A stretch of 64,000 nt of DNA from a virus. A program made the position numbers and the translations under genes. The DNA lies in IMG/VR virus record IMGVR_UViG_3300042731_007944, positions 1-64,000 of that record, one strand, 5' to 3'. The notes under the pieces were generated by a model that did not search any database, was not told where the DNA came from, and saw only the letters and a program-made list of their open reading frames with translations. The number at the start of each line of letters is the position of its first letter. The first letter of the stretch is position 1. Below are positions 9,768-63,117 of the stretch, in pieces.

Positions 9768-9923
9768 GCATAACAATATTATTCTTTAAACTCTCAACAT
9801 AGATAATACTGACAGATGAACAGGTTTTTTGTCAAGGTATATTTACCAAAAAAGACCCATTTTTTATAATAATTTTTGCGAGAAAAACTTGACAAATTTC
9901 GTCAGCCTTTTTACGCTTCCTTT
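9768..9923. promoter_or_regulatory. attI: attI-L with divergent Pc and PintI promoters
   Basis: G/TTATGC crossover on the minus strand at 9774. Minus-strand TTGACA near 9835 (Pc); plus-strand TTGACA(9889)-17 bp-TACGCT (PintI). Confidence 0.85.
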
Positions 9924-10883
9924 ATGGCACAAAAAAGTAAGCTGTTAGCAGACTTTCAGGTTTGGATGACCAAAAAAGGCTTATCCTACCACACGGAACA
10001 AAGTTATGTCCAGTGGGCCAAACGATTCATTCTCTACTATAACAAAACCCATCCGCTTGAGATGGCAGAGCCGGAAGTGCAAGCCTACCTCTCGTACTTA
10101 GCCGTTGAACGCGAAGTGCGCCCTTCGACACAGAATCAGGCGTTTCACGCCCTGATCAACTTCTATCAGTTTCTCGGCAAGCCACTCTTTAACGTCAACG
10201 CCACTCGCGCCAAAAAGAAAACACGCATCCCGGTCGTGCTCTCACGAAACGATGTTCTTCTCCTGCTTGACCATATCACAAAGCCGCCGTACCCATGTAT
10301 GGCTGAACTGCTCTATGGCTCTGGGTTGCGCATCTCAGAATGCGTCCGATTGCGCGTGAAAGACCTTCTGTTAGATCGTCTGCAAGTCATTGTTCGCAGT
10401 GGCAAGGGCGACAAGGATCGGTTGTCCCTTCTCACGGATAATGCCGTTCCACTCTTGCAAGCCCAGCTTGTCACGGCGCGGCGTGTCTACGACCAGGATC
10501 GCAGGTCTCATCTCGCGGGCGTCTACCTTCCTCCGGCCTTATCTCGAAAATACCCATCTGCCTCAACCTCATGGGAATGGTTCTGGGTGTTCCCGTCTAT
10601 CAAGCGTTCAGACGATCCCCGTGATGACGTTGAACGGCGTCATCATTGGAGCGATCACGCCTTGCGGAAATATATCAAACAGGCCGCGAAACAGGCCGGG
10701 TTTGATACAACGATCACGCCGCACGTCCTGCGTCATTGTTTTGCCACGCATCTGCTAGAGGCGGGATTGGGGGATGGCCGAACGCTTGAACTCGTCCGGC
10801 AGTATATGGGACATGATTCAATTGAAACGACAAAAATCTATCTGCACTGTATGCAACGAGGGCGGAATCCGTTAAGTCGCTAG
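9924..10883 (+). CDS. intI: Integron integrase (tyrosine recombinase)
   Basis: GLRISE, GKGDKDR, HVLRH, GH..TTKIY catalytic set plus the IntI-specific insertion GVYLPPALSRKYP...WFWVFPS...DPR..RRHH; divergent from the attC array. Confidence 0.97.
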   Translation: MAQKSKLLADFQVWMTKKGLSYHTEQSYVQWAKRFILYYNKTHPLEMAEPEVQAYLSYLAVEREVRPSTQNQAFHALINFYQFLGKPLFNVNATRAKKKTRIPVVLSRNDVLLLLDHITKPPYPCMAELLYGSGLRISECVRLRVKDLLLDRLQVIVRSGKGDKDRLSLLTDNAVPLLQAQLVTARRVYDQDRRSHLAGVYLPPALSRKYPSASTSWEWFWVFPSIKRSDDPRDDVERRHHWSDHALRKYIKQAAKQAGFDTTITPHVLRHCFATHLLEAGLGDGRTLELVRQYMGHDSIETTKIYLHCMQRGRNPLSR

Positions 10884-11723
10884 AACAACAGTTCTGTCTG
10901 AAGTTCTTTCCCGGCTGTTTGCCGCAACATAACGCCGTGTTGGGCTTGCGGCATCCGTTGCCGTTCTTCCCCGAAATTCAACTTATAGCCTTCCTTTTTA
11001 ATGTCATAGACGTCGGCGATCTTTTCATAACAGCCCGTAATCACGCCATAGCGTCGTCGAAAGGTTAAGTTGTTTTTTGACGACACACTCATCTGGACCG
11101 GCAACTCAACCGCTAATCGCTTATGCTTATGCCCGAGCCAGATCAGATCGGATGACACCCAGGAGCAATAACGCTTCAGATCGATTATGCCATCCGTCAC
11201 TTCCGCATTCCCGCCCTGCCCGTGATTGTAGAATACGTCAAATTTCCGCCCATGTCCACCATTGCGTGTGTAGACAAACCGAATAAATCCGGTGTATCCG
11301 CCGTGACAAATCGGTTGCAGTGATGTGTTACGCCGCTCATTCAGCAGCGTGATCAACATATCTACGAGATCAAAATCTTGATATTTGAGTGTGCTCGTTT
11401 CGTGATTGCCTAAGCCAATGACATCAATGAGATCGACATACGGAACGAGCATCTCGAACGCGAAGTAGACGGATTGATTGAGTTTGGCCTGCCGTTGATC
11501 CTTGTCCTGGCTCCGAGACCACCGTTTTTTTGTCCTGCGAGAGGAGGAGGCTGGTCACATCGCCGTTGATAAAAATGCGAGCATTGCATTCCTTTGCGCG
11601 GTCAAAATCCTGAAGAAACACCTTTTTGTCAAAACCGGGTGCGTCCAAATGCAGATCAGAGGCAAAGAGGTGGTAATATTCTTTTTGCGAGGTGACATCG
11701 CGTCTGAACGTGATTATCTGCAT
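10880..11723 (-). pseudogene. Calcineurin-like metallophosphoesterase split by a 1-nt frameshift
   Basis: SDLH and NGD are in the 5' ORF; GNHE, HG and GHKH are in the 3' ORF. Removing one A from the A7 tract (11525-11531) fuses them. Confidence 0.8.
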
Positions 11724-12094
11724 TCAGACAGGTATCCCTCCACGATTTTCGCCACATCCGGATCGAGCACCGCCCGGTTCCCTGGCGGTGACGTCAACGC
11801 CCGGTATGCCTTCAGCGCATCCACGATGGCAACCAGCGTGTCTAATGTGGGCGCAACGGCACTCAAGTCTTTCCCGAACATCGCTTCCGCCGCTGCAATG
11901 CCTTTCTCATTATCCTGACGATCCTTGCTGGCTAGCAGGGCCAATTCAGCTAGCCGGTCAAGATCGATGTCGTCTTGAAGCACGGTTCCGTCCAGGTCGA
12001 CAAGGCCATACGTACCATCGCTTTGCGGCTGCAAGGCGCAGGCGGCCAGAAGAAGCAGGGCAAGAAAACATGTTATTATGAGACTCTTTTGCAT
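11714..12094 (-). CDS. Phage lipoprotein
   Basis: Signal peptide with an LAAC lipobox. Confidence 0.7.
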   Translation of the reverse strand: MQKSLIITCFLALLLLAACALQPQSDGTYGLVDLDGTVLQDDIDLDRLAELALLASKDRQDNEKGIAAAEAMFGKDLSAVAPTLDTLVAIVDALKAYRALTSPPGNRAVLDPDVAKIVEGYLSECR

Positions 12095-12282
12095 TGTTCA
12101 AAGCGCACCCGAATCCGCGTCACCAGGTCGTCTTCCCGATGACGTGGACAGGGCCACGACAGGGATTCAACGGTTTGCAAAGCCAGCACAATCTGCTCGA
12201 TCCGAACCTGATTGTGTTCCGCGCCGGGTTCGGTGACAAACAAGACTTGTTGCGCCAATAGATGCTGATCATGTGGATTCAT
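12076..12282 (-). CDS. Hypothetical protein
   Basis: Overlaps both neighbours in the same operon. Confidence 0.5.
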   Translation of the reverse strand: MNPHDQHLLAQQVLFVTEPGAEHNQVRIEQIVLALQTVESLSWPCPRHREDDLVTRIRVRFEQCKRVS

Positions 12283-12970: not shown

Positions 12971-12977
12971 GGCACGA

Positions 12978-13022
12978 TATCATAGCAGCATGGCGGGAAG
13001 AAAGTCAAGTGAAAATTTTCTC
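12978..13022 (-). promoter_or_regulatory. Sigma-70 promoter with the shared operator
   Basis: GAGAAAATTTTCAC-TTGACT-18 bp-TATGAT (with extended TG). Confidence 0.6.
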
Positions 13023-13134
13023 AGATAGATCGCCCTGACCTATCCTGGCTATCCCACGAGAGTTACAGCACAGATCAGGGCGTGACACCGTTCAGCAGAC
13101 AACCTAGGAGGGGAGACTGAACGGCGTTTCGTTT

Positions 13135-14323: not shown

Positions 14324-14589
14324 TTTCCTTCGTATGCACCGCCTCAGCCGCCGTCAGCAGCACGCGTCGTTTGTATTGCAAGGGCAATTCCTGTGGCTTC
14401 CTGGGAAACACAGCAATCGTCGCAACAAGCAGGCGGCACAAATGCACGGTATTCGTCTACCTCACCACCATGTCCGCCAGCATCCAGGCGGTTTTCAGAT
14501 CCGCATAGAGTTTGCGCCCTTTGTCCTGCCCGAAGGCATCCCAGGCGAAAAAAAGAAAGAGTTTCAGTTTTCTGAGGGTTGTTCGCATA

Positions 14590-15072
14590 TCAATTCCCTC
14601 GTTTGTATGCAATGACCGGCGTGGTCAGCGCCTTCTCATGATCCCACCCGTACACGCAGACGCGCATGTACAGATTCGAGCGCGTGATGCCCAGCGCCTG
14701 CTGTGCCGGTTCACGCGCCCAGAGACGCAACAATTGCGTCTTGCCGTTCAGTGTGAGGTAAATCTCATCCTTCGTATTGTTCGCGCCGCCTATTGAGCGC
14801 AATTCAACACCCAGCGCCCGTAAATGTTCCCGGATGGTATTCTTGTGGATATCAAGCCGGGCCGCAATGTCACAAGGTCGCATCCCGCGATCCTGATACC
14901 ACTCCCGGATCAGCCGGTTGACATCGTCATGCGTCAGATCCGGCGCGTTCAGGGCCTTCTTGATATACGGCAATGTGGCGTTATTCCATATCATCTCGTT
15001 TTTTAAACTAGCGCGAATTCCCGTGGAATACGCACTTGCGCTTTTTTCACGCGTTTGTGTTTGTAAAACCAC
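14590..15072 (-). CDS. HTH protein with a homing-endonuclease-associated C-terminal motif
   Basis: DIAARLDIHKNTIR HTH; LTLNGKTQ..W...GW..EKALTTP. Confidence 0.6.
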   Translation of the reverse strand: MVLQTQTREKSASAYSTGIRASLKNEMIWNNATLPYIKKALNAPDLTHDDVNRLIREWYQDRGMRPCDIAARLDIHKNTIREHLRALGVELRSIGGANNTKDEIYLTLNGKTQLLRLWAREPAQQALGITRSNLYMRVCVYGWDHEKALTTPVIAYKRGN

Positions 15073-15872
15073 GTCATCAGACGCTTCCGTTCAAAGTCGT
15101 TCCAGCCTAATGCCTGCTGTGCTGCTGTCACGATATTTGGCTGCATGGCATCCAGAGGATGATACCACATCGGCAAGACTTTCCTGACGTGTTTCTCAAT
15201 GAACTCACAACGCGTCCAGGCGTCATCCGGCCCGGTCCGAAACCCGACCAGAGCATAACTACGAATATGGGTTTTCACCACGCTGTTCCGTTTCAGGGTG
15301 TCCACCGCCGTCAACCAATCGTCTACATACGCCATGCTATCCAGCGCTAACCTGACCGTCACCTGTGCGATCTCTGCGATCCGTCTGGCATGATAGTCTG
15401 TCAGCAACCGGGCATCCACGCCCTGGTTAAAGTCCGCCCATTCCCACTGTATCAGCCGATCTATCACCTTGTCGAAGTGTGTTTGTGAGGCGGCGAACAG
15501 GTTGTCATCGATCAGGACCGGACGATCCGGCCACTCCTCGAATTCCTGAAACGCTCCACAGATCCGGTTGACCCCGCAAAAGCCGCAACGATTCGGACAG
15601 CCCGCCGTGGTGCGCGTGGCAAGGGGGTTGATCCGTTGCAAGACGGAAGAATCATTCTCGCCAACCGTGACGTGTGAGAGGTCATCAAAATAGTTCGGCA
15701 GTAAGCGCACCGCTGGGCCTCCAATGACCGCCCTTTCCCACATAAACGACTTCTGCAAGAGCCGTATCCGCACGTCTGGAAGATTCCAGGTAAACGGAAT
15801 CGACACGTACAGTGTTTTCCCGCCTGTCCAGTAGACAGGGCCTTTCGGCCATGTGATCTCCGGGGTGTTCAT
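15003..15872 (-). CDS. Radical SAM protein
   Basis: GCPNRCGFC (CxxxCxxC), DDN and DFNQG.DARL motifs. Confidence 0.85.
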   Translation of the reverse strand: MNTPEITWPKGPVYWTGGKTLYVSIPFTWNLPDVRIRLLQKSFMWERAVIGGPAVRLLPNYFDDLSHVTVGENDSSVLQRINPLATRTTAGCPNRCGFCGVNRICGAFQEFEEWPDRPVLIDDNLFAASQTHFDKVIDRLIQWEWADFNQGVDARLLTDYHARRIAEIAQVTVRLALDSMAYVDDWLTAVDTLKRNSVVKTHIRSYALVGFRTGPDDAWTRCEFIEKHVRKVLPMWYHPLDAMQPNIVTAAQQALGWNDFERKRLMTWFYKHKRVKKAQVRIPREFALV

Positions 15873-16408
15873 GCCGCGAATAGCTCCTGTTGTGGTGACA
15901 GTTCAACATCAAGAGATGGTTTCTCAATAACGCTGAACCTCACAGGTTCTGCTACTGGTGTAAAAATGACAACCGCGCTCGGAAACGGGGCCGATGAGAC
16001 TTTCATCTGTCCGTCTTCTCGATATGACGGCAACATCCGGTTAATAAACTTCAAGCGCCCTTTGATAAAACGAATTTCTGACGCCTGCATCGCGTAATTA
16101 TGCCACCAGCCTGTATCAGTACGAGACGGAACCAAACAGACCACCGTTGCGCCTTGTACGGCTGACAGAAACGCTTTGCGCATCCACTGACCGATCACCC
16201 GTCCATAGGGAGGGTTCATCCAGCATACGCCCTGCCAGTCTTGTGATAACCCGTCGTCAGCCTTCGTATAAAACCGTGGACATGTCGCGTTTTCTGCTGA
16301 GGCACAGACATCAACGGTAAACGAGAATTCCCGGTGCAGTTTGTTAAACAGCCAGCGCGGGGTTTCCCAGTGTTCCGAGTAAGATGAGAAAACGCCTTTG
16401 TTAAGCAC
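15869..16408 (-). CDS. dam: Phage DNA N6-adenine methyltransferase (Dam family)
   Basis: WETP, DVCA, WMNPPY, RTDT.WWH, GRLKF, APFPS motifs. Confidence 0.92.
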   Translation of the reverse strand: MLNKGVFSSYSEHWETPRWLFNKLHREFSFTVDVCASAENATCPRFYTKADDGLSQDWQGVCWMNPPYGRVIGQWMRKAFLSAVQGATVVCLVPSRTDTGWWHNYAMQASEIRFIKGRLKFINRMLPSYREDGQMKVSSAPFPSAVVIFTPVAEPVRFSVIEKPSLDVELSPQQELFAA

Positions 16409-17796: not shown

Positions 17797-19215
17797 TCAA
17801 TAGCTCCTCGTCTGCCAGTCGTCCGGCACGTCCGGCGCGGGCTGGTGATGGCGCTCCAGGTTCTCGAAGCGGGTGTATTCTTTCAAGTAGGACAAATAGG
17901 CCGTTCCAATTTCACCGTTTCGTTGTTTACGGAAAAGAATTTCTGCAAGACCCTTGTCTGGGGTCTCTGGATAATACACCTCATCGCGATAGATACACAT
18001 CACGACATCCGCATCCTGTTCAATCGCGCCTGACTCTCGTAAATCCGACAAAATAGGGCGCTTATCGGTTCGAGTTTCACAGGCCCGGCTTAATTGCGAC
18101 AGGGCCAGTACAGGCACGTTCAACTCTTTCGCCAGGGCCTTGAGCGACCGGGAAATTTCCGTGACTTCCTGCTGCTTATTTTCCTGTCTCCTGCGTGTCG
18201 TCATGAGTTGTAGATAGTCCACAATGACCAACCCAAGTCCGTGTTTCATCTTGAGTTGCTTCGCCTTCGCTCGCATCTCAAGAATATTCAGGGCTGGGGT
18301 GTCGTCAATGTGAATCGCGGCCTTTGCCAGCACTTCAGCAGCATAAGCTAACCGCTCCCAATCTCCCTCTTGTACCTGTCCGGCGATCAGCTTTCGATAG
18401 TTGACTTTCGCCTCAGAACATAGCAGACGCATCCCCACTTGTTCTTTCGACATTTCCAGGCTAAAGATCGCCGTTGGGATCTGGTGTTTCGCTCCGGTAT
18501 ATCGTCCGACACATAAGGCTAACGCCGTTTTTCCCATGCTCGGACGCGCGGCCAGGATAATCAAATCTGAAGGTTGTAACCCAGTGGTCAGATAATCGAT
18601 CTCCGTGTATCCGGTAGGGACGCCCGTCACGACCTGTTTCTTTTCAGCCAACTCCTCCAGCAGTTCGAAACTCTGCTTGACCAACACGCCTGAACTCACA
18701 AAGCCCTGTTTCACATGGCCCTGCGCCACATTAAAAATCATATTTTGTGCATCTTCCAAGATGACAGACGCTGGTTCCTGGTCGTCATGACAGCGACAGG
18801 CGATCTGGATGCTAGCGTTCATTAACCGGCGTGAAATCGCTTTTTCGTGAACAATCCCCGCATGAAAGGTGATGTTTGCCGCTGAAGGAACCTGATCAAC
18901 GAGTTCAGCAAGATAGGCCGGACCGCCGATCTCTTCAAGTTGTTTGCGGCGTTCCAATTCATCACGTAAGACAAGCAGATCGACCGCTCCCTGCTGTTCG
19001 AGACACGTCAACATCGCCTCGAAAATCTTCCGATGGTTCAGGCGGTAAAAGTCTTCTGGATCGAAAAGTTCTAACGCGGCGTACAGGGATGCGTTTTGCA
19101 CCAGCACCGCCCCTAAGACGGCTCGCTCAGCGTCCAAATTGAACGGTGGCGGTATTTCTGCCTTGCGATACATGGTCTGTATCGTCGCATGTTCATAGGT
19201 TTTCGGGTTACTCAT
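17797..19215 (-). CDS. dnaB: Replicative DNA helicase
   Basis: AARPSMGKT, FSLEM, VDYLQL, SQLSR, DLRESGAIEQDAD, KQRNG motifs. Confidence 0.97.
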   Translation of the reverse strand: MSNPKTYEHATIQTMYRKAEIPPPFNLDAERAVLGAVLVQNASLYAALELFDPEDFYRLNHRKIFEAMLTCLEQQGAVDLLVLRDELERRKQLEEIGGPAYLAELVDQVPSAANITFHAGIVHEKAISRRLMNASIQIACRCHDDQEPASVILEDAQNMIFNVAQGHVKQGFVSSGVLVKQSFELLEELAEKKQVVTGVPTGYTEIDYLTTGLQPSDLIILAARPSMGKTALALCVGRYTGAKHQIPTAIFSLEMSKEQVGMRLLCSEAKVNYRKLIAGQVQEGDWERLAYAAEVLAKAAIHIDDTPALNILEMRAKAKQLKMKHGLGLVIVDYLQLMTTRRRQENKQQEVTEISRSLKALAKELNVPVLALSQLSRACETRTDKRPILSDLRESGAIEQDADVVMCIYRDEVYYPETPDKGLAEILFRKQRNGEIGTAYLSYLKEYTRFENLERHHQPAPDVPDDWQTRSY

Positions 19216-20249
19216 TGTGCCCCTCCAATACCGGCCACATATCCGGTCATGCGGTGTTGTTGCTCAGGTGGTAACTTCGTCTCTTGTACCGCATGCGGAA
19301 CCCGGTTGTACTGGCGTTCTTGTGTGTACCGCTGCGGTGTCTGGGCTTTCACGTAATTCTGATATTTCCACGGCCATCGCCTTCGAGAACCACGGATAGT
19401 GAGATAATGGCTCTTATAGGCTTTTGCTGACATGCCAAACTGGTATTCATCATGCTCTTCCAGGAACTCATCAAGGTCTGTAATCCAAAACTGCAATTCG
19501 CGCTTATCCTGTTTGAAAAGCGTCAACAGCTTCCCTTTTTCATCGTCTGTCAGGTAGACATGCTGATATTCCCCATACGGTTTCTCGTCAGGGTCAGGTT
19601 CGGTTTTGACGCGTCGTCGTGTCTTTTTCCCTTTTCGAGAAGGGGGGGATGAAGCCGTGTCATCCTGCGACGAATGTTCTTTCTTTTTTTCTTCACTCTC
19701 AGTATTATTCTTTAATTCAGATCTACGTATCCTTATATCAGTATTACGTTGTGTCGGATTTTCCACCTTCTGGTTTTTCAGTAATCTGGATGACTCGTCC
19801 GGTTTTAGGGCGTTTTCACGAGATGACCAGATTCCTGACTTCCCGTCCACTGGTGTATCCATATAACCAGATTCCTGACTTCCCGTCCACTGGTTGTGTG
19901 GTGGATATGTTTGTGTCAATGCCTGTAGAAACGCCCCGTAGAGCGGGTGATCTTTTGGCACTTCCACCACGGCTGTTTTCCACTCTTGCACCCGTCCGCC
20001 GTCATCTCTCACGGCAAATTTCCGAAAATAGCCATACTGTTTGAGTTCACGCAAGGCGGCCCTGGTCGCATCGCGCCCTTCTGTGGCATGGGCCATTAAG
20101 TCTTGTTCAGAACATTCCCACCCGTCGCCATGTCCTACGAGATAGGTGAGGATGCCTTTGGCCCTCCAGGACAACCGGGTATCGTCGAGAATCGGATATT
20201 TATGAATCGTAATTGAGTCTGTCAGTACTTTCTGCACGCGATAAATCAT
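19212..20249 (-). CDS. Phage replication initiator (HTH, lambda-O-like organisation)
   Basis: DTRLSWRAKGIL...L.ELKQYGY; directly upstream of dnaB; contains iterons. Confidence 0.8.
   Translation of the reverse strand: MIYRVQKVLTDSITIHKYPILDDTRLSWRAKGILTYLVGHGDGWECSEQDLMAHATEGRDATRAALRELKQYGYFRKFAVRDDGGRVQEWKTAVVEVPKDHPLYGAFLQALTQTYPPHNQWTGSQESGYMDTPVDGKSGIWSSRENALKPDESSRLLKNQKVENPTQRNTDIRIRRSELKNNTESEEKKKEHSSQDDTASSPPSRKGKKTRRRVKTEPDPDEKPYGEYQHVYLTDDEKGKLLTLFKQDKRELQFWITDLDEFLEEHDEYQFGMSAKAYKSHYLTIRGSRRRWPWKYQNYVKAQTPQRYTQERQYNRVPHAVQETKLPPEQQHRMTGYVAGIGGAQ
19826..19894. repeat. Iteron-like 29-bp direct repeat x2 (putative ori)
   Basis: ACCAGATTCCTGACTTCCCGTCCACTGGT at 19826 and 19866, next to an AT-rich tract at 19680-19750. 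Confidence 0.7.
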
Positions 20250-21577: not shown

Positions 21578-21654
21578 TGGTAGCGAGGCTCAGATTTGAA
21601 CTGAGAATTTTGAGCTTATGAGACTCACGGCCTACCGGATTGGCCTACCTCGCT
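21578..21654 (-). tRNA. tRNA with CAT anticodon (Met or Ile2)
   Basis: AGCGAGG/CCTCGCT acceptor stem, GGCC D-stem, TGAGT-CTCATAA-GCTCA anticodon arm, CTCAG-TTCAAAT-CTGAG T-arm, encoded CCA. Confidence 0.93.
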
Positions 21655-33919: not shown

Positions 33920-34459
33920 TTACACCTCCTCTTGAATATCTTCTCCGGCTTCGACAATTTGCCTTTCAATTGAATATGGAACGCCTAAGATTTCAGAAGC
34001 AATGCCTTTTAATCCGATCAATCGTTGAATTTCATCAAGCGTCATCCCTAATTCAGTCATAATTTTTTCTTCCGACCAGCCTTCTTTGAGTATTGTAACT
34101 AAAGAGGCTTGCAATTCAACCTCATGTTTGCCACGTGCCCGATTATGACGAATTGTTGACGCCATGCGTTCGCTAATATCCTTATTGATAACAGAGACTG
34201 GAATCATTCCTTGTTCCCTCTCAAAAATATCAACGTACATCAACATAATACTATACCGATGATAGCCATCAACAATAGTGTATTTGTCTCGTGTTTGATC
34301 ATAATAACAGACAATCGGCATGGTAAACCCATCTTGTTTGATGCTTTGGTACAAGAGATCCATTTCTCGCTTTGCTACGTGATTTGGGTTATAATCATTC
34401 GCTTCAATTTTTTCAATAGGAATAGCTTTAATATTATACACTGGACTTTGGAAATTCAT
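33920..34459 (-). CDS. IbrB-like ParB/Srx-family protein
   Basis: ANDYNPN, SIKQDGFTMPIV, VDGYHR, STIRHNRARGKH. Confidence 0.9.
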   Translation of the reverse strand: MNFQSPVYNIKAIPIEKIEANDYNPNHVAKREMDLLYQSIKQDGFTMPIVCYYDQTRDKYTIVDGYHRYSIMLMYVDIFEREQGMIPVSVINKDISERMASTIRHNRARGKHEVELQASLVTILKEGWSEEKIMTELGMTLDEIQRLIGLKGIASEILGVPYSIERQIVEAGEDIQEEV

Positions 34460-40858: not shown

Positions 40859-43321
40859 TCAGCGTAGCCCGTATTTCTTCAGCTTTGTATGCAGCGTCTG
40901 GCGGACAATACCCAGCCGTTTCGCCGCTTCCGTCACATTCCCATGACACGCCATAAGCACTCGCTGAATATATTGCTTCTCTGTCTGTTCGAGTTGCTCC
41001 GCCAACGAAAATCGCGCGGTATCCGATAATGCCAGATCCGGCGCAATGGACAGATCGCCGGTGGCAAAAAACGAGTCGAGGACCCGGTAGAGTTCCCGGA
41101 CATTGCCCGGCCAATCATAGTCAAACAGCAGCGTCATGACCTCTGCCGGAAGAAATTCTCGCTCTCGCCATTGCGGATGGTGGCGAATATAGTGCTCAAC
41201 GAGCAGTGGCAAGTCGTCTTTGCGCTTGCGCAAGGCAGGCAAGCGTATTTGTACGCCCTGGAGCCGATACCAGAGATCCTTCCGGAAAGCCCCGTCTGCT
41301 ATGTCTCGCATGAGATCCCGGTTGGTGGCCGCAAGAATTCTGAGATCAACCGAAATCACGCGATCCGATCCGACCGGGCGAAATGACAACGTATCGATTA
41401 CGCGTAACAATTTTTGTTGCGACTCCAGCGACAAGTTTTCAATTTCATCCAGAAAGAGCGTGCCGCCGTTGGCCTGGATCAAGTACCCATCCCGATGAGA
41501 CATTGCGCCCGTAAACGCGCCTTTCCGGTGGCCGAAAAACGCGCTTTCAAACAAGTTCGGTGAGATCGCCCCGCAATCCACCTCAATAAATGCCCTGGCA
41601 CTCCGAGGACTGCGTTGATGAATTTCACGGGCCACCAATTCTTTGCCCGTTCCGGTTTCGCCAACCAAGACGACCGAAATGTCCGAGGCCGCTGTCTGCG
41701 AAATGCGCGAATACACCCGCTGCATTAATGGGTGTTTCCCGATTAATGCGCCGTACCGAAATCGGGTCTGCTGGGCATCTTCAAGTTGCGTTTCCAGCGC
41801 CTGCTGTCGCTGTCGTTCTTCTGTGATGTCACGCCCGAAGGCAAAAAACTCACAGACCTTCCCGCTTTTGAGGATGATCGGCGTAATGGACCACTCGATC
41901 CACTTGTTGTCCTGGTGGACAATAAGCGGTGTCTGCTTGTTGATCGCAAGGATCTGACGAAAGATTTTTTCACTCGGGACAAACGCCCGAAACGAGATCG
42001 GAAGATCCGGCCATCGGTTGCGAATCGACGCATTCACTTCTGACAGCACTCCGTTCGGCAGAAACGCACAGAAAAAATTTTTTTCGTGTTCAAGCATCGC
42101 TATATGTCGTTTTGCGTTCAGTTCGGCGTCTTTGCGCAAGAGCCGCTCTTGCGTCCAGGCGTGCTGCAACCGGGCCGCCATCGCATTAAATGCCCGGCTG
42201 AGACGTCCGATCTCCTCAATTCGGGCCGTGTTGATATCTGCCCGGATGGACAACGATCCCCCGTGGTGCGCTTGATCCATCGTCTGACACAGTGCTTCGA
42301 GAGGCCGGGCCAGGGACCGGCTGATCCGCCAGGAGAGTGCCGCGATGCCAGCCGATCCAAGCACCAGAATGCCGGTCACAACGCCAAACAGACGCCACAG
42401 CACGATCCGTTCTTCATCCCGTGGCTGGATCAGCAGAAACGCCCCACCAGCAAACCCAACCTTGCTGAGATACGCCGCCCGCGTTGTGCGTATGTTCGGG
42501 GCCGTAGGAATCGCTGAAAGATCAACGTCAAGAGGGGCGTCAAGGGAACTCAGTCGTCGTATTCCGTCGATCATTAATGTGACATGGACATCGCCCATTC
42601 GCCGGAACCGGTGCATGTCGAGATCGCTCACGGTCCGCAGTTCCCGCACGATCCCGAACCGCTCATGATTATACGTAATTGGCAGGCAATACTCGAAAAA
42701 GATGCCATCCGGGAAGGAGACGATTTCAAACCGGCCGTCTGTTGGAATCTCATCATCAAAGATGGTCGGCACGCTGGCAGGCGTCGGGATCGCGCGGATG
42801 TCTGTTTCTTGCTCGACGTATACATACCAGCGATCCTCCGGATGCATCTGTGTAAAGACTCCACCCTCGATAAAGGGTAAATAGACGCCGCCCGACAGGA
42901 TATCCGGATCGTCAGGATCGCGCTGAGCCATTCCGACCAGTACGCCCTCTCGATCATACACGGCGGCGTTTTGCGCCCCGACGAGGCGAAAATAATTCAC
43001 CAATTCCAGCGCAAAGAAATAATAATACGACTTCGTCCGATCAAAGCGCTCCATCGGGAGGAGGTCTTCGCTTTGCAACCACAGATCAAGCATATAGAGC
43101 CGATTCCGAATCGCTGGCTCAGCCTGCTTCATCTGATTGAGATAGATGATTTGCATGAGCCGCAAATCATCGTGAATGATGGCCGCCGCGCGTTCCACAT
43201 GCTGTTGAAAATCATGCCGTACCTGCCAGAGGAAAACGGCATAATAGCCGGCCGCAACGATCAGGCATCCGACGAGCGTAAATTGAAAAAAGGAAAGAAA
43301 AAACCGTTTGCGTAAGGTCAT
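40859..43321 (-). CDS. Membrane-bound sigma-54 enhancer-binding protein (TM-sensor-TM-HAMP-PAS-like-AAA+-Fis HTH)
   Basis: GETGTGKE, GAFTGA, LFLDEI, WPGNVREL, GNVTEAAKRLGI motifs; HAMP EEIGRLSRAFNAM. Confidence 0.93.
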   Translation of the reverse strand: MTLRKRFFLSFFQFTLVGCLIVAAGYYAVFLWQVRHDFQQHVERAAAIIHDDLRLMQIIYLNQMKQAEPAIRNRLYMLDLWLQSEDLLPMERFDRTKSYYYFFALELVNYFRLVGAQNAAVYDREGVLVGMAQRDPDDPDILSGGVYLPFIEGGVFTQMHPEDRWYVYVEQETDIRAIPTPASVPTIFDDEIPTDGRFEIVSFPDGIFFEYCLPITYNHERFGIVRELRTVSDLDMHRFRRMGDVHVTLMIDGIRRLSSLDAPLDVDLSAIPTAPNIRTTRAAYLSKVGFAGGAFLLIQPRDEERIVLWRLFGVVTGILVLGSAGIAALSWRISRSLARPLEALCQTMDQAHHGGSLSIRADINTARIEEIGRLSRAFNAMAARLQHAWTQERLLRKDAELNAKRHIAMLEHEKNFFCAFLPNGVLSEVNASIRNRWPDLPISFRAFVPSEKIFRQILAINKQTPLIVHQDNKWIEWSITPIILKSGKVCEFFAFGRDITEERQRQQALETQLEDAQQTRFRYGALIGKHPLMQRVYSRISQTAASDISVVLVGETGTGKELVAREIHQRSPRSARAFIEVDCGAISPNLFESAFFGHRKGAFTGAMSHRDGYLIQANGGTLFLDEIENLSLESQQKLLRVIDTLSFRPVGSDRVISVDLRILAATNRDLMRDIADGAFRKDLWYRLQGVQIRLPALRKRKDDLPLLVEHYIRHHPQWREREFLPAEVMTLLFDYDWPGNVRELYRVLDSFFATGDLSIAPDLALSDTARFSLAEQLEQTEKQYIQRVLMACHGNVTEAAKRLGIVRQTLHTKLKKYGLR

Positions 43322-43349
43322 TAGAGAAACGGGGCGTCGAGCGAGTGCA

Positions 43350-43425
43350 AACAGGCAACCCGGCTGACTCGACACGAGTCCCGTGGCTTTCCGTCCCATC
43401 CTCGCGGATGGTTTGGCATTTTTCT
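43350..43425 (-). ncRNA. c-di-GMP-I (GEMM) riboswitch
   Basis: GCCAAACCATCC-GCGA-GGATGGGACGGAAAGCCACGGG-ACTC..GAGT-CAGCCGGGTTGCC matches the GEMM consensus, with C21-G46 covariation. Confidence 0.88.
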
Positions 43426-43494
43426 GTGTTCAGTAGGTACTCTATACGATAGTGCGTGGGGAGAAAAATGTCAAATCGGTCTAGCAAAAAAAAT

Positions 43495-50767: not shown

Positions 50768-51934
50768 CTATGCCGCTGACGCGGCAAGCGTCGCCAGCCC
50801 GCGACGCAATAAAACGAGAGAGGACACGTAGTCTCGATTTTCGACCAGCCCGCATTTCGGGCATTCATGCACTCGTTGCGACAGTGTTTTCCGTACTGGC
50901 TCCCCACAGACGCATACTTGTGAACTGCCTCTCGGGTTGGTCGGGATTCGACGTTTCCCTTGCTCTTTGACTTTATAGGCAACGATATTCAGAAATAGGC
51001 CCCAGGCCGCGTCTGAAATAGAGAGGTGCAAGCCTGACGTATGACACGCACCGTTCGGCAGATACGTCCCAGTATCATCCTGTTTTGCCTTTGGACGCCT
51101 GAGCATATTTCGGATATTCAGGTTTTCGTGAATGAGATAATCCGTTTGTTTTAAGAGCGCGTTTGCTGTCTTGTGTAAAAAATCCAACCGCTGACACTTG
51201 ACGCGATAATGGGTTTTTTGGATGGCCTTCAAAAGTTTGTACCATTGCGGAGAGCGTTTCGGAGCCTTTGCAAATCGCCGTTGAAGACGTTTCAGGCGTT
51301 GCTGTGATTTTCGGAAGGCTTTGGGATAGACGCAATGAAACCCGTTTGAGGCATAGACATAATCATTCAACCCTAAGTCAATCGCTAGAGGTGGCAAGGC
51401 GTCTTTAGGCTCTACTGATACTTCTAATTCAGTAGAGAAAGACGCAAACCACTTGCCTCCATCTTGTAAAATCGTCAGAGTTTTGATTGTGGCCTCTTCC
51501 GGGATCGGGCGATGATACACACACTTCATGTTGCCAACTTTTGGTACATAGAATGAGTCAGAGGGACGTTGCGTATATTGCGGATAAGTAATTGACGACC
51601 ACCTGCCACGTTTTTTAAACTTCGGGAACCCAGGCACGTCGCCCTGTTTAACTCGGCGGAAGAAGGCGTCAAAGGCGTTATCCAGACGGCGTAAGACATC
51701 TTGAAGCACCTGAGAATGGACACCCTTAAACCACGGACGGGCTTTTTTAAGGAGAGGAAGTTGGCGTTTTTGTTCATACCAGGACACAGACCGGCCTTCC
51801 TGCTCATAGACGTCCATACGTTCTTTGAGTGACCAGTTGTACACATAGCGGCACATCGAAAATTGATTCTTCAGGTTTGTCTGTTGCGCTTTTGTCGGAT
51901 AAATCCTATATTTATACGCCTTACGAAGGATCAT
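50768..51934 (-). CDS. tnpB: RNA-guided endonuclease TnpB
   Basis: AYKYRIYPT; RuvC D (IDLG), E (HENL) and D (NRD); Zn ribbon. Confidence 0.95.
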   Translation of the reverse strand: MILRKAYKYRIYPTKAQQTNLKNQFSMCRYVYNWSLKERMDVYEQEGRSVSWYEQKRQLPLLKKARPWFKGVHSQVLQDVLRRLDNAFDAFFRRVKQGDVPGFPKFKKRGRWSSITYPQYTQRPSDSFYVPKVGNMKCVYHRPIPEEATIKTLTILQDGGKWFASFSTELEVSVEPKDALPPLAIDLGLNDYVYASNGFHCVYPKAFRKSQQRLKRLQRRFAKAPKRSPQWYKLLKAIQKTHYRVKCQRLDFLHKTANALLKQTDYLIHENLNIRNMLRRPKAKQDDTGTYLPNGACHTSGLHLSISDAAWGLFLNIVAYKVKEQGKRRIPTNPRGSSQVCVCGEPVRKTLSQRVHECPKCGLVENRDYVSSLVLLRRGLATLAASAA

Positions 51935-52341
51935 TTGGTTTTTTGATCGGCAATATACCGCGTGACCGTCTCTTCTGAAACGTGTCCGATAGTTTCCACA
52001 TACGTTGAGGGGTTCCACAGATGCCCATTCCAGAGACGTTTCTGTAACTCTGGAAATTCAAGCAAGAGGCGTCTCGCAGAAATGCCCTTCATTAATTTAT
52101 ACATATGCGAGGCAGAGTATTTTGGATGCCCAGACACAAACACATGTACATGATCCGGCATGACCTCCAGTGATTGGATGACAAATCCTTTTTCTTTTGC
52201 GATCTCATGTAACAGTGTCTTGAGTCTGGTATCAATGCCGTTGACCAATACCTTGCGACGATACTTGACCGTCCAAACAATGTGATAGTTCGCATTATAC
52301 ACGACCGTTCTGGCATAGGTAAACCGTTCCTTGTCTCGCAT
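51931..52341 (-). CDS. tnpA: HUH (Y1) transposase
   Basis: YHIVW.VKYRR, DHVH, KG.SAR, LW, YI..Q. Confidence 0.96.
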   Translation of the reverse strand: MRDKERFTYARTVVYNANYHIVWTVKYRRKVLVNGIDTRLKTLLHEIAKEKGFVIQSLEVMPDHVHVFVSGHPKYSASHMYKLMKGISARRLLLEFPELQKRLWNGHLWNPSTYVETIGHVSEETVTRYIADQKTK

Positions 52342-53814: not shown

Positions 53815-55398
53815 CTACCCTCCTATCACGAAATATTGTGATTCCACCGGGAGGATTTCCGGATTCGTCACCTTATAGAGTATATCATCCAGATAGACCG
53901 GATCGGGCGACGAGACCCCTTCTACGGCATTCAATACCGTGCCAACAGCCGTATACCCGGCCCCGACATAGAACTTTTCTGCGTAGCCGGTCGGCGCATA
54001 GGCGGGTTGCCAAAAATAGCGGCTCAGCATCGTGCCAGACGCTTCCACGCTGCCATCAATCAGGATCGACAGCGTGCCGAGGGAAAAGAGAATTTCCACC
54101 TGATGCCAGGCGTTATCATTCATCGTGGTCGTCGTGGTCAAGATGTAGCCGCCAGCCGGGTTCCAGACGTTTGTGAGTTTGATCTTCGGCGCGTTATACG
54201 GAGAGGCTGAGTCCAACGCGACACAAAGGTTGAATGCTTGTAAGATTCCGCGATTGGCGAAATACCCGCCGTTGGTTTTTACCCAGAAGGACAGGGAAAA
54301 ATCGCCGTATGGCGTCAAATCGCTGCCCAATGCCGTCACAACTTCGAGATAGTCGCCTCCGGATCCCATACCGGTTGAGGCCGTTAGTTTGATGGACGAG
54401 GCCCCAGTGTGCGCGGTATCCGTGCTATGTTTGACGCCCCCGTGGGCTGTGATGGCATGCGGATCTCCGCTGGAATCGGTAAAGGTGGTACTGCCGTCTG
54501 TGGTGTCTGATTGGAGATTGAAGACCGTCACTTCCCCCGGTCCAGCAAACCCATTGATCAGGAATTTCCCGGTGCCGAGCGTGAGATAATCCGGGGAGGC
54601 CGCCGCCATCGAGACATTGCTGAAATCGCGTGTTGCGGGCATGACGCCGAATTTAAACAGTGGCGCTTTCGGGGCATCTGGAAGCAAGAACACGGCTTTT
54701 ACGGCATCTGTTACCGCCGCGAGTGCTTCTTCCTGTGCTGCGGATCCGGTAGGCGTACAGGATCCCTGTTCCGCTTCCGCTAACCCGGCAAACGCGCCTG
54801 AGAGATGTGCCCCGGCTTCGGTATGCCCTCCTTGAAATTTGGTATCCAGATCGTATTCCACCGAATTCGCCGAGGTGGTTTCATCGCCACCCTGAAGCGG
54901 GGTTCCGTGCTGAATCCAGGCGGGCGGATCATCATTCACCCCAGGATCGGGGGTGCTGCCGTACCCGAGGACAAAATAGTGATACGTCACGCCTGACGTA
55001 TTTACCTCTGCCGCCGTGCCGAGCGTAAACCCGGTTGTGGAGATCGCCGTCACGCGATCTGTCTGTGGCGCTTCCTCTGCCGTGCTTTTCATCTTCGGCA
55101 TTCCGTCACCTGTGACGAGATACAGGTTGCCGTCTTGCTCGCTCCAAATCCATAAGCAGAGGATTTCGGTAAAGGTCGTGATCAGAAAATCAATGGTTTG
55201 GGCGGCGCTTGCGCCTTCATAGGTACTCGTTTCCGGAATCGGGAAACTATTATACGGGGGCGTATGCCCCCCGCTCGGATAGTGTTGATTCAGAAAGCTT
55301 TCCCAGAGCTCTTTTCCGTACCGATTTTTCGTATCCGGGTATTTTGGATGATTTTCCGCGATAATATACTCATCCGCGCTAATCAGTGTTCGTGCCAT
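53815..55398 (-). CDS. Tail fibre/receptor-binding protein with a LamG-like domain
   Basis: DGSTTFTDSS..GASSI..DFSLSFWVK..WHQV..YLDDI. Confidence 0.75.
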   Translation of the reverse strand: MARTLISADEYIIAENHPKYPDTKNRYGKELWESFLNQHYPSGGHTPPYNSFPIPETSTYEGASAAQTIDFLITTFTEILCLWIWSEQDGNLYLVTGDGMPKMKSTAEEAPQTDRVTAISTTGFTLGTAAEVNTSGVTYHYFVLGYGSTPDPGVNDDPPAWIQHGTPLQGGDETTSANSVEYDLDTKFQGGHTEAGAHLSGAFAGLAEAEQGSCTPTGSAAQEEALAAVTDAVKAVFLLPDAPKAPLFKFGVMPATRDFSNVSMAAASPDYLTLGTGKFLINGFAGPGEVTVFNLQSDTTDGSTTFTDSSGDPHAITAHGGVKHSTDTAHTGASSIKLTASTGMGSGGDYLEVVTALGSDLTPYGDFSLSFWVKTNGGYFANRGILQAFNLCVALDSASPYNAPKIKLTNVWNPAGGYILTTTTTMNDNAWHQVEILFSLGTLSILIDGSVEASGTMLSRYFWQPAYAPTGYAEKFYVGAGYTAVGTVLNAVEGVSSPDPVYLDDILYKVTNPEILPVESQYFVIGG

Positions 55399-55852: not shown

Positions 55853-55853
55853 G

Positions 55854-57931: not shown

Positions 57932-58061
57932 CGCTTTTGTCCCTCCTCCGCCAGGATCGTGAGATAGCGGTGCCGTTCGTCTGGGGTTGCTCGAAGAAAG
58001 GACACGACAGACAGCACGATCCACGACGCCAACAAGAACAGACATATTCCGACAAACAGCA

Positions 58062-59231: not shown

Positions 59232-60311
59232 TCAGATCCTCGTCTTCACGCACTCTTTGAAGTGCAGATCCACGGCCCCGTGAAAATCCACCCCGGCGAA
59301 CTGCTGGCGGAAATCCCGAATATTGCGCCAATCACAGAGAAAGAATGTCTCTGGCTCATCATAAAACAGATGGACATACAGTGGGTGGATCTTTCCGCTC
59401 GTGACGATATCCACCACGGCGGCCTGCATGGCAGCGAGACTCGCAATATCGTTCAGCGATTGCACGTCATAGTGCAGCAGGAGATCCGCTTGCTGCGCAT
59501 ACGCCTTGTGTCGAAACATGCCGGCTGGATTCTCACTCTCCGCCCCGGTGTAGCCGTAGCCTCGCGAGGACGTCCACCAGGCGTTTGCTTCGAGTTCGCG
59601 ATAGGATCCCAGATAGAGCGTCGCCGTTTGAAAATACGACAGCGCCCCATCCACCGGGACGATGCGCCAGTACCGGTACGTCTGATCCAGGTAGAAGATC
59701 AGCTTGTGATCCGTCACGGTGATCGCCTGCGAATACGCCGGGCTGCCCCAACTGTCTGAGGAGTTCGCCTGAAGCGTCAACGTGCTTTGCCCGGCCACCA
59801 GATTGTGATTCATCAGGGCAAAGGCCGTCACCTGCTGCGCACTGCCGAGGTCAATCACGATCGGAAACGTGGCTCCTGACCGAAAAAGACTGTTGGGGTT
59901 CAAATTCAGCAGGTTTCCGGCTCCGTATTTCGCCACGGCGAAGAACTGAAAGGTGTCTTCCAGCGTGAAGTCATCGCCGACCCCCGCCTGCCAGGCGATC
60001 TTAACGCCATAATTCAGCGTGGCAAGCGTCGTGAGGGTCGTGACGCCGGTGGCTTCCCAGCCGGAGCTTTCTGAGGTCTTCCAACGATAGGTCGCCTGCC
60101 CCACAGAGACGCCGGGTGTGATGCTGTCGATCTGGGCGATGTAATCCAGGTTCTGCGCCCCGGCAAACGATCCGGCGGCAAACGCCGCCGCGCTGCCGGT
60201 CCCTCGCGTTTTCTCCACCCCGGAGACGATCCCCCCGGCCTGACTGCCTGCGGCGATCATATCCACGGACGTAATGTAGTTCGTATCCAGATAGCGCTCA
60301 GCGGTATACAT
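59232..60311 (-). CDS. Tail structural protein (distal-tail-like, discoidin-like insert)
   Basis: Immediately after the tape measure gene; IDLGSA..V..NHNL..YRYWR. Confidence 0.65.
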   Translation of the reverse strand: MYTAERYLDTNYITSVDMIAAGSQAGGIVSGVEKTRGTGSAAAFAAGSFAGAQNLDYIAQIDSITPGVSVGQATYRWKTSESSGWEATGVTTLTTLATLNYGVKIAWQAGVGDDFTLEDTFQFFAVAKYGAGNLLNLNPNSLFRSGATFPIVIDLGSAQQVTAFALMNHNLVAGQSTLTLQANSSDSWGSPAYSQAITVTDHKLIFYLDQTYRYWRIVPVDGALSYFQTATLYLGSYRELEANAWWTSSRGYGYTGAESENPAGMFRHKAYAQQADLLLHYDVQSLNDIASLAAMQAAVVDIVTSGKIHPLYVHLFYDEPETFFLCDWRNIRDFRQQFAGVDFHGAVDLHFKECVKTRI

Positions 60312-62773
60312 CAGCGGCTCCCCCAGCGGGTGGCGGTGGACACGACGCGGCTTTCCTGGGTGCGCTGGGCGTTCGTGATCCGCTTGGCAAACGCCTCCAC
60401 GCTGCGCTCGTCCACAATATTGTTGCCTTCAAACACGACGGTCACCGGCGCGGTGTGCGCGGGTGTTGCCGCCTGCGCCTGTACCTGTGGCGGCTGATAC
60501 TGTGACCGCGTGGGCATCGTGAGCACGCCTACCCCGCTCGCGCCGTAATACGATCCGCCCCCGGCCAGCGCACTGGCAATGTTCAGGCCCCCTCCGGCCA
60601 TGTACTCGCCGCCTCCGGCCAACATCGTCGCCAGGCTCGATCCAATCGCCTGCCCGGTCGTCTTCGCCTGGGAGGTCACGCCCTGAAGACTCGATCCGAT
60701 GCCGTCCACGGACGCCACGACTTTGTCCGCCCAGGACGCCATTTCTGGGAACACACTATGCTCATAGGCTTCATCGCCCAACGCCTTCACCTCTTCTTTT
60801 GCGCCAAAAATTTTGTCTTTCAATTGTGTCATGGCGACGCCCACTTTGTCAACCATGCGTGACATGCCTTCACTCACCGCTTCCCACGCGCCTGCTAATT
60901 CATTTTTCAGCAAATCAATAATGGTCCGGATACTGTCGCCAAGCGTGCCAAACACATCCAAATACGCTTCTTTAAAGCCATAGGCGCTATCACCCATTAA
61001 TTCAAATCCGGCAACGACCGCCTGAAACAAGGGCATCGTGATTTTACGCGCCTTCTCGATCCCCCCCGCGATACCATCCAGTACCGGCCTGATCACGTCC
61101 CACGCCACACCGAACGCATCGCCCACTTTTTCAGCGAAATCCACAACTTTCGTCAACTTAGGAATCAATTCTGTGAGCGCCGGGCCGAGCGTCGTCACGA
61201 TCTCTTTGGCCGTTGTGAACGCTTTACTCAGGCCCGTTTGCCCGGATTCGTCCGGCGTGGTGTACTTCACAAACACCTCTTTAATCTGCTCGCCCAGGCC
61301 CTTCAGGGTTTCCCAGAATTTCGAGGCCCCGGCTTCAACAGAATCCCAAAGGGTTGCCCCGTGCTCTTCGACATACGTCATCCAGACTTCAAACTGTTCT
61401 GATAGCGGTCCAATGACGGCCCCGGCAAGTTCCAGGGCTTTATCATGGAGAATACCAAACACCTCATGTAATTTCTCGCTGTTCCGGCTCCACTCCTCAA
61501 ATTTGTCAACCAAGGGGTTAATGTAATTTTTGAGGAAATCCGCAAATGTTTCGGCAAATGGTTCGCCGAATGTGATCAAAATGCTATTCCAAATACTACC
61601 AAGGACTTTTTGCGCTTCTGACGCCCGATCTACCTGACGGGCATAACTGTCCATGTGTGAGTTTGCGCTAATAAATGCGTCCTCAGCAATTTTGAAAATA
61701 GATAAAAAGCCCTCTCCAATAGGCATTGTCTGATCCATTGCCGCTGCTAATGTTGAAATAGCTTTGAGGCCGATTGCTCCAAAAGCATCGGTGGCAAGGG
61801 TATTTTGATCAACCCCCGCCCTGATAGATTCAACGGACATATCCAGGCCGTTAAACGCCTCGGTGAGCAAATTCATTGTGTTGAACGAATCCTGTCCGAG
61901 GGCATATTGAATCATTTCACCGAGTGAAGAGAAGGAGATCCGGCTTTTGCCGGTGATCGCCTCTAATCTGGCAATGGCTGCCGTTCCGCCGTCTGATTGT
62001 GCCGTCAGCATTTTCGCTGCGGCGGCTAACGCATCCGTTTTGGTTGTCAGGTTGAAATAGGCACTTCCCATCTGCCGCGATGCGCTCGTGGCCGCTAATC
62101 CTCCTGAGATCAGAGCCCCGCCCCAGGCTGTCGCTTGTTCATAGCTGAGCCTCATCACAGCGTTATTTTGCCCCATTGCCTTGTTAAAATTGCTGATCTC
62201 AAGCTCGTTCGCATTCATGCTTTTGCTGACAGCATCCAGGGCAGAGAGCATATTTGCGGTAGAATCAGCGGCGAGTTTAAAAATGGTCTGGGATTTCCCC
62301 ATGTGGAGGGCGAGCTTTTCCGTACTACCTCCAAATTTATCAAGTGCAACAGCGCCAATCCCGACTTGACGTGAAAATTCGGCGATTGACTCAGCGCCTT
62401 TGATCCCCATCTGACCAGCAACCTGCGCCACTTCAAGAAGGTTGGCGGCCGTCAGACTCCCAATTGGTTTGGCGAGTTCGCGGATCTGTTTGCCGAACTC
62501 ATCAAGGGCATCGCCAGTCATGCCGGTGGTTTTTCCGACTAGCGCGAGGGCGTCATCATACGTTTGGTAGGCATCGACGGCATCAGTCACAAATTCCGTA
62601 CTGATGTCCATCATCGAGGAGGCGACATTGCTAACAAGGTCAATAATGCCACCGAAGGCTTTGGTCGCAATAGAGGCGAGTGATGTGAATGCGCCACCGA
62701 GAGAAGTGACGCCCTTAATTGAACCCCCGAGATCCAGGCGGACTTTTACGGTAATTTCATCGACTGTTGCCAC
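60311..62773 (-). CDS. Phage tail tape measure protein
   Basis: DDALALVGKTTG..A..AGQMGI core, aromatic 11-residue-type repeats, HSVFP motif. Confidence 0.9.
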   Translation of the reverse strand: MATVDEITVKVRLDLGGSIKGVTSLGGAFTSLASIATKAFGGIIDLVSNVASSMMDISTEFVTDAVDAYQTYDDALALVGKTTGMTGDALDEFGKQIRELAKPIGSLTAANLLEVAQVAGQMGIKGAESIAEFSRQVGIGAVALDKFGGSTEKLALHMGKSQTIFKLAADSTANMLSALDAVSKSMNANELEISNFNKAMGQNNAVMRLSYEQATAWGGALISGGLAATSASRQMGSAYFNLTTKTDALAAAAKMLTAQSDGGTAAIARLEAITGKSRISFSSLGEMIQYALGQDSFNTMNLLTEAFNGLDMSVESIRAGVDQNTLATDAFGAIGLKAISTLAAAMDQTMPIGEGFLSIFKIAEDAFISANSHMDSYARQVDRASEAQKVLGSIWNSILITFGEPFAETFADFLKNYINPLVDKFEEWSRNSEKLHEVFGILHDKALELAGAVIGPLSEQFEVWMTYVEEHGATLWDSVEAGASKFWETLKGLGEQIKEVFVKYTTPDESGQTGLSKAFTTAKEIVTTLGPALTELIPKLTKVVDFAEKVGDAFGVAWDVIRPVLDGIAGGIEKARKITMPLFQAVVAGFELMGDSAYGFKEAYLDVFGTLGDSIRTIIDLLKNELAGAWEAVSEGMSRMVDKVGVAMTQLKDKIFGAKEEVKALGDEAYEHSVFPEMASWADKVVASVDGIGSSLQGVTSQAKTTGQAIGSSLATMLAGGGEYMAGGGLNIASALAGGGSYYGASGVGVLTMPTRSQYQPPQVQAQAATPAHTAPVTVVFEGNNIVDERSVEAFAKRITNAQRTQESRVVSTATRWGSR

Positions 62774-62806
62774 TACGTGGTCGTAGAGCGCCCGTGTTGA
62801 CGCCAC

Positions 62807-62926
62807 AAAAAAACCGGACAGACGGAGTGTAGCGGACCCCGTGTTTGTCCGGTAAGAAAATCATGATTTCGTGTGTTGGCAGCAGTATGGCAGGGGGGTG
62901 GTGAAAAGTCAAGTGAAAATTTTCAC
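62807..62926 (-). promoter_or_regulatory. Operator + promoter + leader terminator of the tail operon
   Basis: GTGAAAATTTTCAC-TTGACT-17 bp-CATACT, then a CCGGACA..TGTCCGG hairpin followed by T7. Confidence 0.65.
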
Positions 62927-62940
62927 TGTGAAAAGAAAGG

Positions 62941-63117
62941 CAACTTATTTTTTTGTGCCATAGGGGAAGCGTAAAAAGGCTGACGAAATTTGTCAAGTTT
63001 TTCTCGCAAAAATTATTATAAAAAATGGGTCTTTTTTGGTAAATATACCTTGACAAAAAACCTGTTCATCTGTCAGTATTATCTATGTTGAGAGTTTAAA
63101 GAATAATATTGTTAGCA
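62941..63117 (+). promoter_or_regulatory. attI: attI-R: inverted copy of the attI/Pc/PintI platform with no integrase
   Basis: 62941-63114 is the reverse complement of 9771-9944 with 4 mismatches; crossover G/TTAGCA at 63111. Confidence 0.93.

Follow-up and report, generated by a model that had tools for sequence, protein, structure and literature searches.

The first 64,000 nucleotides (nt) of the 104,987-bp IMG/VR viral record IMGVR_UViG_3300042731_007944 (this stretch, bases 1-64000, is called the window below; the record is listed as linear, and CheckV estimates it to be 89% complete) carry an integron whose recombination platform, comprising the attI site and the adjoining promoter-like region, is present twice and in opposite orientation. 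The explanation favored here, which is judged to be reasonably probable, is that of a phage-borne integron with a duplicated and inverted platform, both copies of which are served by a single integron integrase, IntI. Under this explanation, the left copy (attI-L, copy L) would represent a normal integron, consisting of intI and approximately 10 cassettes, and the right copy (attI-R, copy R) would represent a cluster of attC sites lacking integron integrases (CALIN) that has an attI of its own, with no integrase behind it, and that heads seven cassettes located between neck/tail genes and the tape measure gene. The single IntI, acting in trans, would most probably insert and excise cassettes at both heads, including at attI-R. 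New cassettes would then be able to enter at either head, with each head bringing a cassette-facing candidate cassette promoter (Pc) of putative function. The 150 bp nearest to the crossover would be kept identical by recombination or gene conversion between the copies, and the inner 24 bp would have drifted.

Two inverted attI platforms and a single integrase

A repeat search and pairwise alignment delineated an inverted repeat (9771-9944 versus 62941-63114) of 174 nt that is 98% complementary and free of indels, with 52,996 nt separating its arms; BLAST of the whole record against itself returned exactly two copies in 104,987 bp. An inverted repeat of such length in 64 kb is far beyond chance. 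Its perfect 150-nt core spans 9771-9920, and all four mismatches (9921, 9922, 9937, and 9942) fall within the inner 24 nt, with none in the other 150 nt (P = (24/174)^4 = 3.6e-4); the inner 24 nt have thus diverged by 17% between the copies. Such a distribution suggests either that both copies of the attI/promoter part are under strong constraint or that exchange between them recently homogenized this part, and constraint and homogenization alike would favor a live second platform over an old relic.

The boundaries of the repeat are equally distinct. On the outer, array-facing side, identity ends in both copies at the GTTA of the crossover, the core being GTTATGC on the minus strand (9774-9768) in copy L and GTTAGCAGGC (63111-63120) in copy R. 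On the inner side, identity ends directly after intI codon 7 (9942-9944). Given that the copies cease to be identical at the crossover between G and TT (G/TT) and are followed by different first cassettes, one or more IntI-type events must have occurred at one attI since the duplication. The inner junction of copy R (…AAGTTG/CCTTTC…) is not a G/TT junction and is not of the IntI type; the intI remnant in this copy consists of seven codons, followed by six unrelated codons and a stop. The dimensions of the repeat, its perfect core, its mismatches, and both limits of identity are as given in the preliminary description of this DNA, and all were reproduced by the repeat search, self-BLAST, and alignment.

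Between these limits, the repeat comprises attI, with the crossover and about 150 bp of flank, divergent promoter-like sites, the ribosome-binding region of intI, and intI codons 1-7. In attI-L, the cassette-facing promoter-like site lies at 9895 to 9866 and the intI-facing one at 9842-9870, and attI-R carries the same sites. The candidate Pc (TTGTCA-18-TATTAT), a consensus match at 10 of 12 positions, points to the cassettes in both copies. A LexA box (CTGT-N8-ACAG) was sought by eye in the repeat and was rejected, the nearest candidate having the wrong spacing. A 30-mer of the perfect core had no match in the viral or metagenome contig collections, and the 174-mer had none among GenBank phages.

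The product of intI is a true integron integrase and a full member of the family. It scores 330 bits against TIGR02249 (curated cut-off, 265) and can be aligned over its entire length with VchIntIA (PDB 2a3v; E 8e-70), which takes in the integron-specific insertion (190-240) as well as the catalytic R, K, H-x-x-R, H, and Y residues. The protein is an orphan: its exact sequence is recorded in two contigs, and of the 5.8 billion proteins searched, the next-best match has 50% identity. A family search of the whole record revealed no second integron integrase, in agreement with the single IntI claimed previously, so that the right array has no intI of its own; the only other integrase match is an ordinary phage tyrosine integrase (98146-99204 of the record). 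The gene is not directly flanked by two inverted attI arms. Rather, 52 kb of replication, accessory, and tail genes extend from the intI stop (10883) to attI-R (62941). IntI action in trans at both heads is the simplest mechanism for such an arrangement, since every standard assay of integron integrases shows them acting in trans (for example, PMC9892861).

Cassette arrays behind both platforms

Both platforms are occupied. Approximately 10 cassettes on the minus strand form the left array, and seven cassettes on the plus strand form the right array, which reaches to about 68,496 of the record. In both arrays, every cassette opens with a core that is the reverse complement of its own attC's R'' box, and the chain is continuous. 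At the two heads, the L1 core GTTATGCAAC pairs perfectly with the R'' box GTTGCATAAC at 9343-9334, and the R1 core GTTAGCAGGC pairs at 10 of 10 positions with GCCTGCTAAC at 63417-63426, substantiating the exact complementarity between the first core of each copy and the next R'' box that had been described. A generic AAC...GTT hairpin finder proved too noisy to count attC sites and was used only where core/R'' pairing and folding agreed. When folded as DNA, the bottom strands of eight attC sites from both arrays formed long hairpins with R/L box spacer bulges and single extrahelical bases. Compared to shuffled controls, seven of the eight gave z-scores of -2.4 to -6.7 (-2.4 to -5.8 for the left array), and the R1 site was weaker (-0.9). 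Since the sites follow one common design (AAC-G-YY...CCCGC / GCGGG...TTGTTA), both arrays can be assigned to one attC family.

By its sequence features, the left side would qualify as a complete integron, having an integron integrase, an attI that adjoins intI with a G/TT join, and attC-bounded cassettes. The right array has the makeup of a CALIN, with seven attC sites (63,417-68,496) and the sole intI 52 kb away. The two ends of the record (1-95 and 104918-104987) are halves of one attC that, apart from 3 missing nt, is identical to the attC at 4033-4175. Because of this, the left array almost certainly runs from the start of the window into the final approximately 4.5 kb of the record, and a circular or circularly permuted genome is probable. 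The assembly break at the record ends thus falls within a repeated attC.

Homology between the arrays is confined to the 5′ part of one cassette (66827-67102 of the record versus 7676-7403; 79% identity). In this case, L5 and R7 are alike over their first approximately 280 nt, counted from the exact cassette boundary, and have the core GTTATAACGC in common; a third partial homologue is located beyond the right array (69367-69433 of the record), and the common gene has no Pfam match. Cassette L7 (1473-3845, minus strand) encodes a 790-aa fused methyltransferase/specificity protein that is MADS2- and type I HsdM-like, with an HsdS-like C-terminus, and thus represents defense-type cargo within a phage-borne integron. 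The acceptor stem of the 95-nt tRNA-like element in R1 is perfect, and both a T arm and an encoded CCA are present, but the anticodon loop is odd and the variable arm is long; ARAGORN reports it as tRNA-Gly(acc), and Rfam gives a weak tRNA-Sec-like match (23.9 bits, below the gathering score of 47).

A phage genome divided into two arcs

The molecule that carries the platforms has the gene complement of a tailed temperate phage, with terminase, portal, capsid, connector, tape measure, fibre, replication genes, and a tyrosine integrase all present. The two platform copies split the record of about 105 kb into arcs of approximately 53 kb (arc A, between the copies) and 52 kb (arc B). In addition to the genes listed in Table 1, arc A contains exonucleases, a methyltransferase, and accessory modules. 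The terminase, portal, major capsid, head-tail adaptor, and Neck1 genes are located outside it, beyond the right array, on the minus strand of a packaging/head region at 74-100 kb of the record. The term "53-kb phage core," applied earlier to the DNA between the copies, is therefore not appropriate, as the packaging and head genes lie elsewhere and the genome consists of two arcs instead. The morphogenesis genes are accordingly split into two minus-strand groups: the tape measure and fibre genes occupy 53-63 kb, and the terminase, portal, capsid, adaptor, and Neck1 genes occupy 74-93 kb. This module is interrupted by the right array and attI-R, which separate the neck/tail genes from the tape measure gene. 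Tetranucleotide usage correlates at r = 0.86-0.95 between arcs A and B and at r = 0.81 between the two arrays, compared to 0.58-0.75 between arrays and backbone. That the arcs match in composition, and that each holds a complementary part of a single morphogenesis module with correct gene order and strand, argues strongly for one genome and against a chimera joined at the repeat.

The leader of the tape-measure/tail operon abuts copy R. It contains a perfect 14-bp palindrome (GTGAAAATTTTCAC, 62913-62926), a promoter-like site (TTGACT-17-CATACT, 62912 to 62884), and, directly up to the GTG start codon of the tape measure gene, a hairpin followed by a T7 run (62852-62807). The hairpin was recognized by visual inspection and is unlisted by the terminator scan. 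Taken together, the leader looks like a late promoter followed by a terminator that would need antitermination. Queries with the tape measure and major capsid proteins found no relatives in IMG/VR. Elsewhere in arc A, a c-di-GMP-I-GGC riboswitch aptamer (43350-43426, minus strand; Rfam 60.2 bits versus a gathering score of 59) sits at the 5′ end of a gene for an 846-aa protein (40859-43399) and is unusual phage cargo.

Table 1. Features of the two platforms, their arrays, and the surrounding phage genome (window coordinates, except where the record is named).
Feature	Position	Strand	Remarks
Left cassette array	1-9773	-	L1-L7 in the window; core/R'' pairing, attC folds
Cassette L1	9217-9773	-	Encodes T5orf172/GIY-YIG-like protein (Pfam)
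attI-L platform (repeat copy S+)	9771-9944	+	Crossover G/TT at 9774/9773 on minus strand
intI	9924-10883	+	319 aa; start codon (9924) inside repeat; TIGR02249
Core-like 13-mer GTTAGCAGACTTT	9944-9956	+	Immediately inside repeat copy L; intI codons 7-11
Phage arc A	10884-62806		PHROGs and NCBIfam searches; tRNA search
DnaB-like helicase	17797-19215
Replication initiator	19212-20249
tRNA-Met	21578-21654
Insertion sequence (IS)-type transposase	50768-52018	-	phrog_506, E 3e-94; between accessory and tail genes
Tail fibre gene	53815-55398	-
Tape measure gene	60311-62806	-	Directly inside copy R
Tape-measure/tail operon leader	62807-62940	-	Palindrome, promoter-like site, hairpin and T7 run
attI-R platform (repeat copy S-)	62941-63114	-	Crossover G/TT at 63111/63112 on plus strand
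Cassette R1	63112-63536	+	tRNA-like element 63131-63226; 73-aa open reading frame 63247-63468; attC 63417-63536
Cassette R2 (start)	63537-64000	+	attC chain and folds
Neck1/tail-completion gene	74437-74952 of record	-
Terminase	91440-93278 of record	-

Relation to known integrons

The closest precedent is the Shewanella prophage M16-3 (MZ568829), for which an integron and an attI-headed CALIN have been reported (Qi et al. 2023, PMC9892861). The attI 28-mer of M16-3 occurs at 14594-14621 (plus strand) and 38588-38615 (minus strand), i.e., inverted and 24 kb apart, and both copies are part of an inverted repeat (140 nt; 87% identity) whose end falls at the crossover. The intervening 24 kb consist of P2-type morphogenesis genes, and the second array is inserted between baseplate and tail-completion genes. 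The two arrays (15048-16367 and 34114-36532) have common cassettes that are 97-100% identical and occur in another order when counted from each attI, which points to cassette-by-cassette site-specific shuffling between the platforms and not to duplication of a block.

The two systems thus have in common one intI, two inverted attI sites, a repeat ending at the crossover, a second array in the tail/morphogenesis region, and phage genes in between; here also, a second copy of the same attI (98% identical repeat) heads an integrase-less array on the same phage genome. They differ in that M16-3 is a 40-kb P2-like cryptic prophage, while the present phage is about 105 kb and apparently intact. Moreover, the repeat of M16-3 stops approximately 160 nt short of intI, while the present one takes in the promoter region and seven intI codons, and the arrays of M16-3 hold near-identical cassettes, while the present arrays share almost nothing. 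To judge from the protein comparisons, the two phages are unrelated, as the IntI proteins are 36% identical and the present terminase is Mu-like, at only 23% identity to Mu-like phages. The layout with two attI sites is therefore not novel, contrary to the initial impression, having already been published, in passing, for a cryptic prophage; the present phage would constitute a larger, cleaner, and probably active example. Virus Rctr41k (KX853513) was considered as a further phage case and set aside, since its IntI-like gene is co-oriented within a gene block, with no visible array.

Among other integrons, the right array resembles CALINs in having seven attC sites with no intI within tens of kilobases, but a typical CALIN has not been reported with a full attI/promoter head, and the one described here has an intact, near-identical copy of the platform of an integron located on the same molecule. 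The likeness to sedentary chromosomal integrons, such as that of Vibrio cholerae with VchIntIA, extends to the integrase family, the attC design, the reading of intI away from the array, and the long arrays of mostly unknown small genes together with defense-type genes. The present integron differs from these in being carried by a phage and in having two attI heads rather than one.

Alternative explanations

What the preliminary description proposed, namely one integrase feeding two arrays, holds insofar as two occupied inverted attI sites, one intI, and genuine attC arrays of one family are present, and fails in its 53-kb core label and its novelty. Several observations weigh against a second platform that is served by IntI. 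The linkage across the 150-bp perfect core, which decides which array adjoins intI, is the assembler's choice, and no close relatives of the phage or platform were found in viral or metagenome collections that might serve to cross-check it. The promoters are consensus matches only. The arrays share just one partial cassette, at 79%, so that there is no direct sign of recent traffic, unlike in M16-3. Finally, the same duplication, which the preliminary description had proposed to seek in related elements, was detected in none of 71 loci (36 genome and 35 metagenome loci, with IntI 33-59% identical over the best segment) that were scanned for inverted repeats, although this is a weak negative, most of the contigs being short.

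The lack of recent cassette sharing would also be expected of a fossil, in which an earlier duplication or inversion that split or copied an array left the second platform behind, the right array has become a passive CALIN, and attI-R is idle, serving neither insertion nor expression. In fact, CALINs are common, with some in phages (PMC9892861), and the inner junction of copy R is not of the IntI type, and therefore at least one end was made by illegitimate recombination. Such a history is nevertheless regarded as unlikely. An old, unconstrained relic would hardly be expected to retain 150 perfectly identical nt next to 24 nt that have diverged by 17%; furthermore, identity ends exactly at the crossover, the first cassette is well formed, and an intact IntI is encoded on the same molecule. 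The concern that two variants or elements were joined artificially at a common 150-bp sequence arises because the perfect core is as long as a short read and the record ends also break inside a repeated attC. The four differences, however, are linked to different inner flanks, indicating two real loci, and the inner flank of copy R is the leader of the tape-measure operon and not intI. The compositional unity of the flanking arcs, the complementary halves of one morphogenesis module in correct order and strand, and the natural precedent of M16-3, the sequence of which was verified by Sanger sequencing (Qi et al. 2023, PMC9892861), likewise speak against misassembly, which is considered very improbable.

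A more dynamic possibility is that attI-L and attI-R regularly recombine with each other, through IntI or homologous recombination, and thereby invert the 53-kb arc, giving two isomers that would swap both the array adjoining intI and the promoters facing the tail operon, as in the isomerization of the 2-micron plasmid and of other genomes with inverted repeats. The geometry of the sites would permit such an inversion, with arcs of approximately 53 and 52 kb, and attI × attI recombination is known for IntI1, at about 1.8e-4 (PMC7790495). The homogenized 150-nt core suggests that the copies do recombine. The inverted form is not obviously lethal, because the tail operon has its own leader (62807-62926), and the promoter-like site in this leader might allow inversion to be tolerated. 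Against this stand the assembler's single path through both copies, with no second isomer observed; the shortness of 174 bp for frequent RecA-dependent exchange; and the fact that attI × attI is the weakest of the IntI reactions. Moreover, the late module is colinear in the assembled isomer: the head, neck, tape-measure, and fibre genes lie on one strand in the usual order only in this orientation, which is therefore probably the functional or main form. Regular inversion of the arc is considered improbable. The FLP/FRT system of the 2-micron plasmid and the Gin/G segment of phage Mu also have a tyrosine or serine recombinase acting on two inverted targets of one replicon, a likeness in manner of working only; inversion and its use are hypothetical here, and IntI is specialized for attC × attI and not for inversion.

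Core-like site within intI and origin of the duplication

Immediately inside copy L, the core-like 13-mer GTTAGCAGACTTT coincides with intI codons 7-11. A second match, with one change, is located at 63111-63123 and comprises the attI-R crossover and the first nine bases of R1. With at most one mismatch, the window holds only these two matches (consensus GTTAGCAG(A/G)CTTT), versus 0.03 expected, suggesting that the inner boundary of the repeat at copy L coincides with a core-type G/TT site. With the 13-mer as reference, the 174-nt platform has opposite orientations at the two loci.

Several routes to the duplication were considered, and none accounts for every junction. An inversion with staggered breaks, a single-strand exchange between inverted sites leading to an inverted dimer, and a cassette inserted into intI at its core-like site each fall short in this respect. 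A platform flipped in situ between two core sites of opposite orientation, a nick by IntI at the 13-mer that started the duplication, and convergence on a preferred IntI-binding sequence at the 13-mer each leave the non-G/TT inner junction of copy R unexplained.

The combined scenario, in which the phage exists as two inversion isomers generated by IntI or homologous exchange, with a platform perhaps bounded by inverted core-type sites (GTTAGCAGACTTT in intI and the attI crossover), is given only a small chance of being correct. If it were true, IntI could flip the 174-bp platform or could have made its second copy, and the arrangement would be a recombinase-driven device for genome isomerization and array switching instead of a static duplication.

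Implications

The only published phage case, M16-3, is extended here to an unrelated and much larger phage, which suggests that the layout of one intI and two inverted attI platforms recurs and is not an accident. The phage integron described here shows, as a clean example from nature, a single integron integrase alongside two capture sites within the same mobile genome, that of a large, apparently intact phage whose cassettes include restriction/methylation-type genes. As such, it offers a test bed for the origin of CALINs, for the service of a distant attI by IntI in trans, and for the rearrangement of genomes by inverted attI copies.

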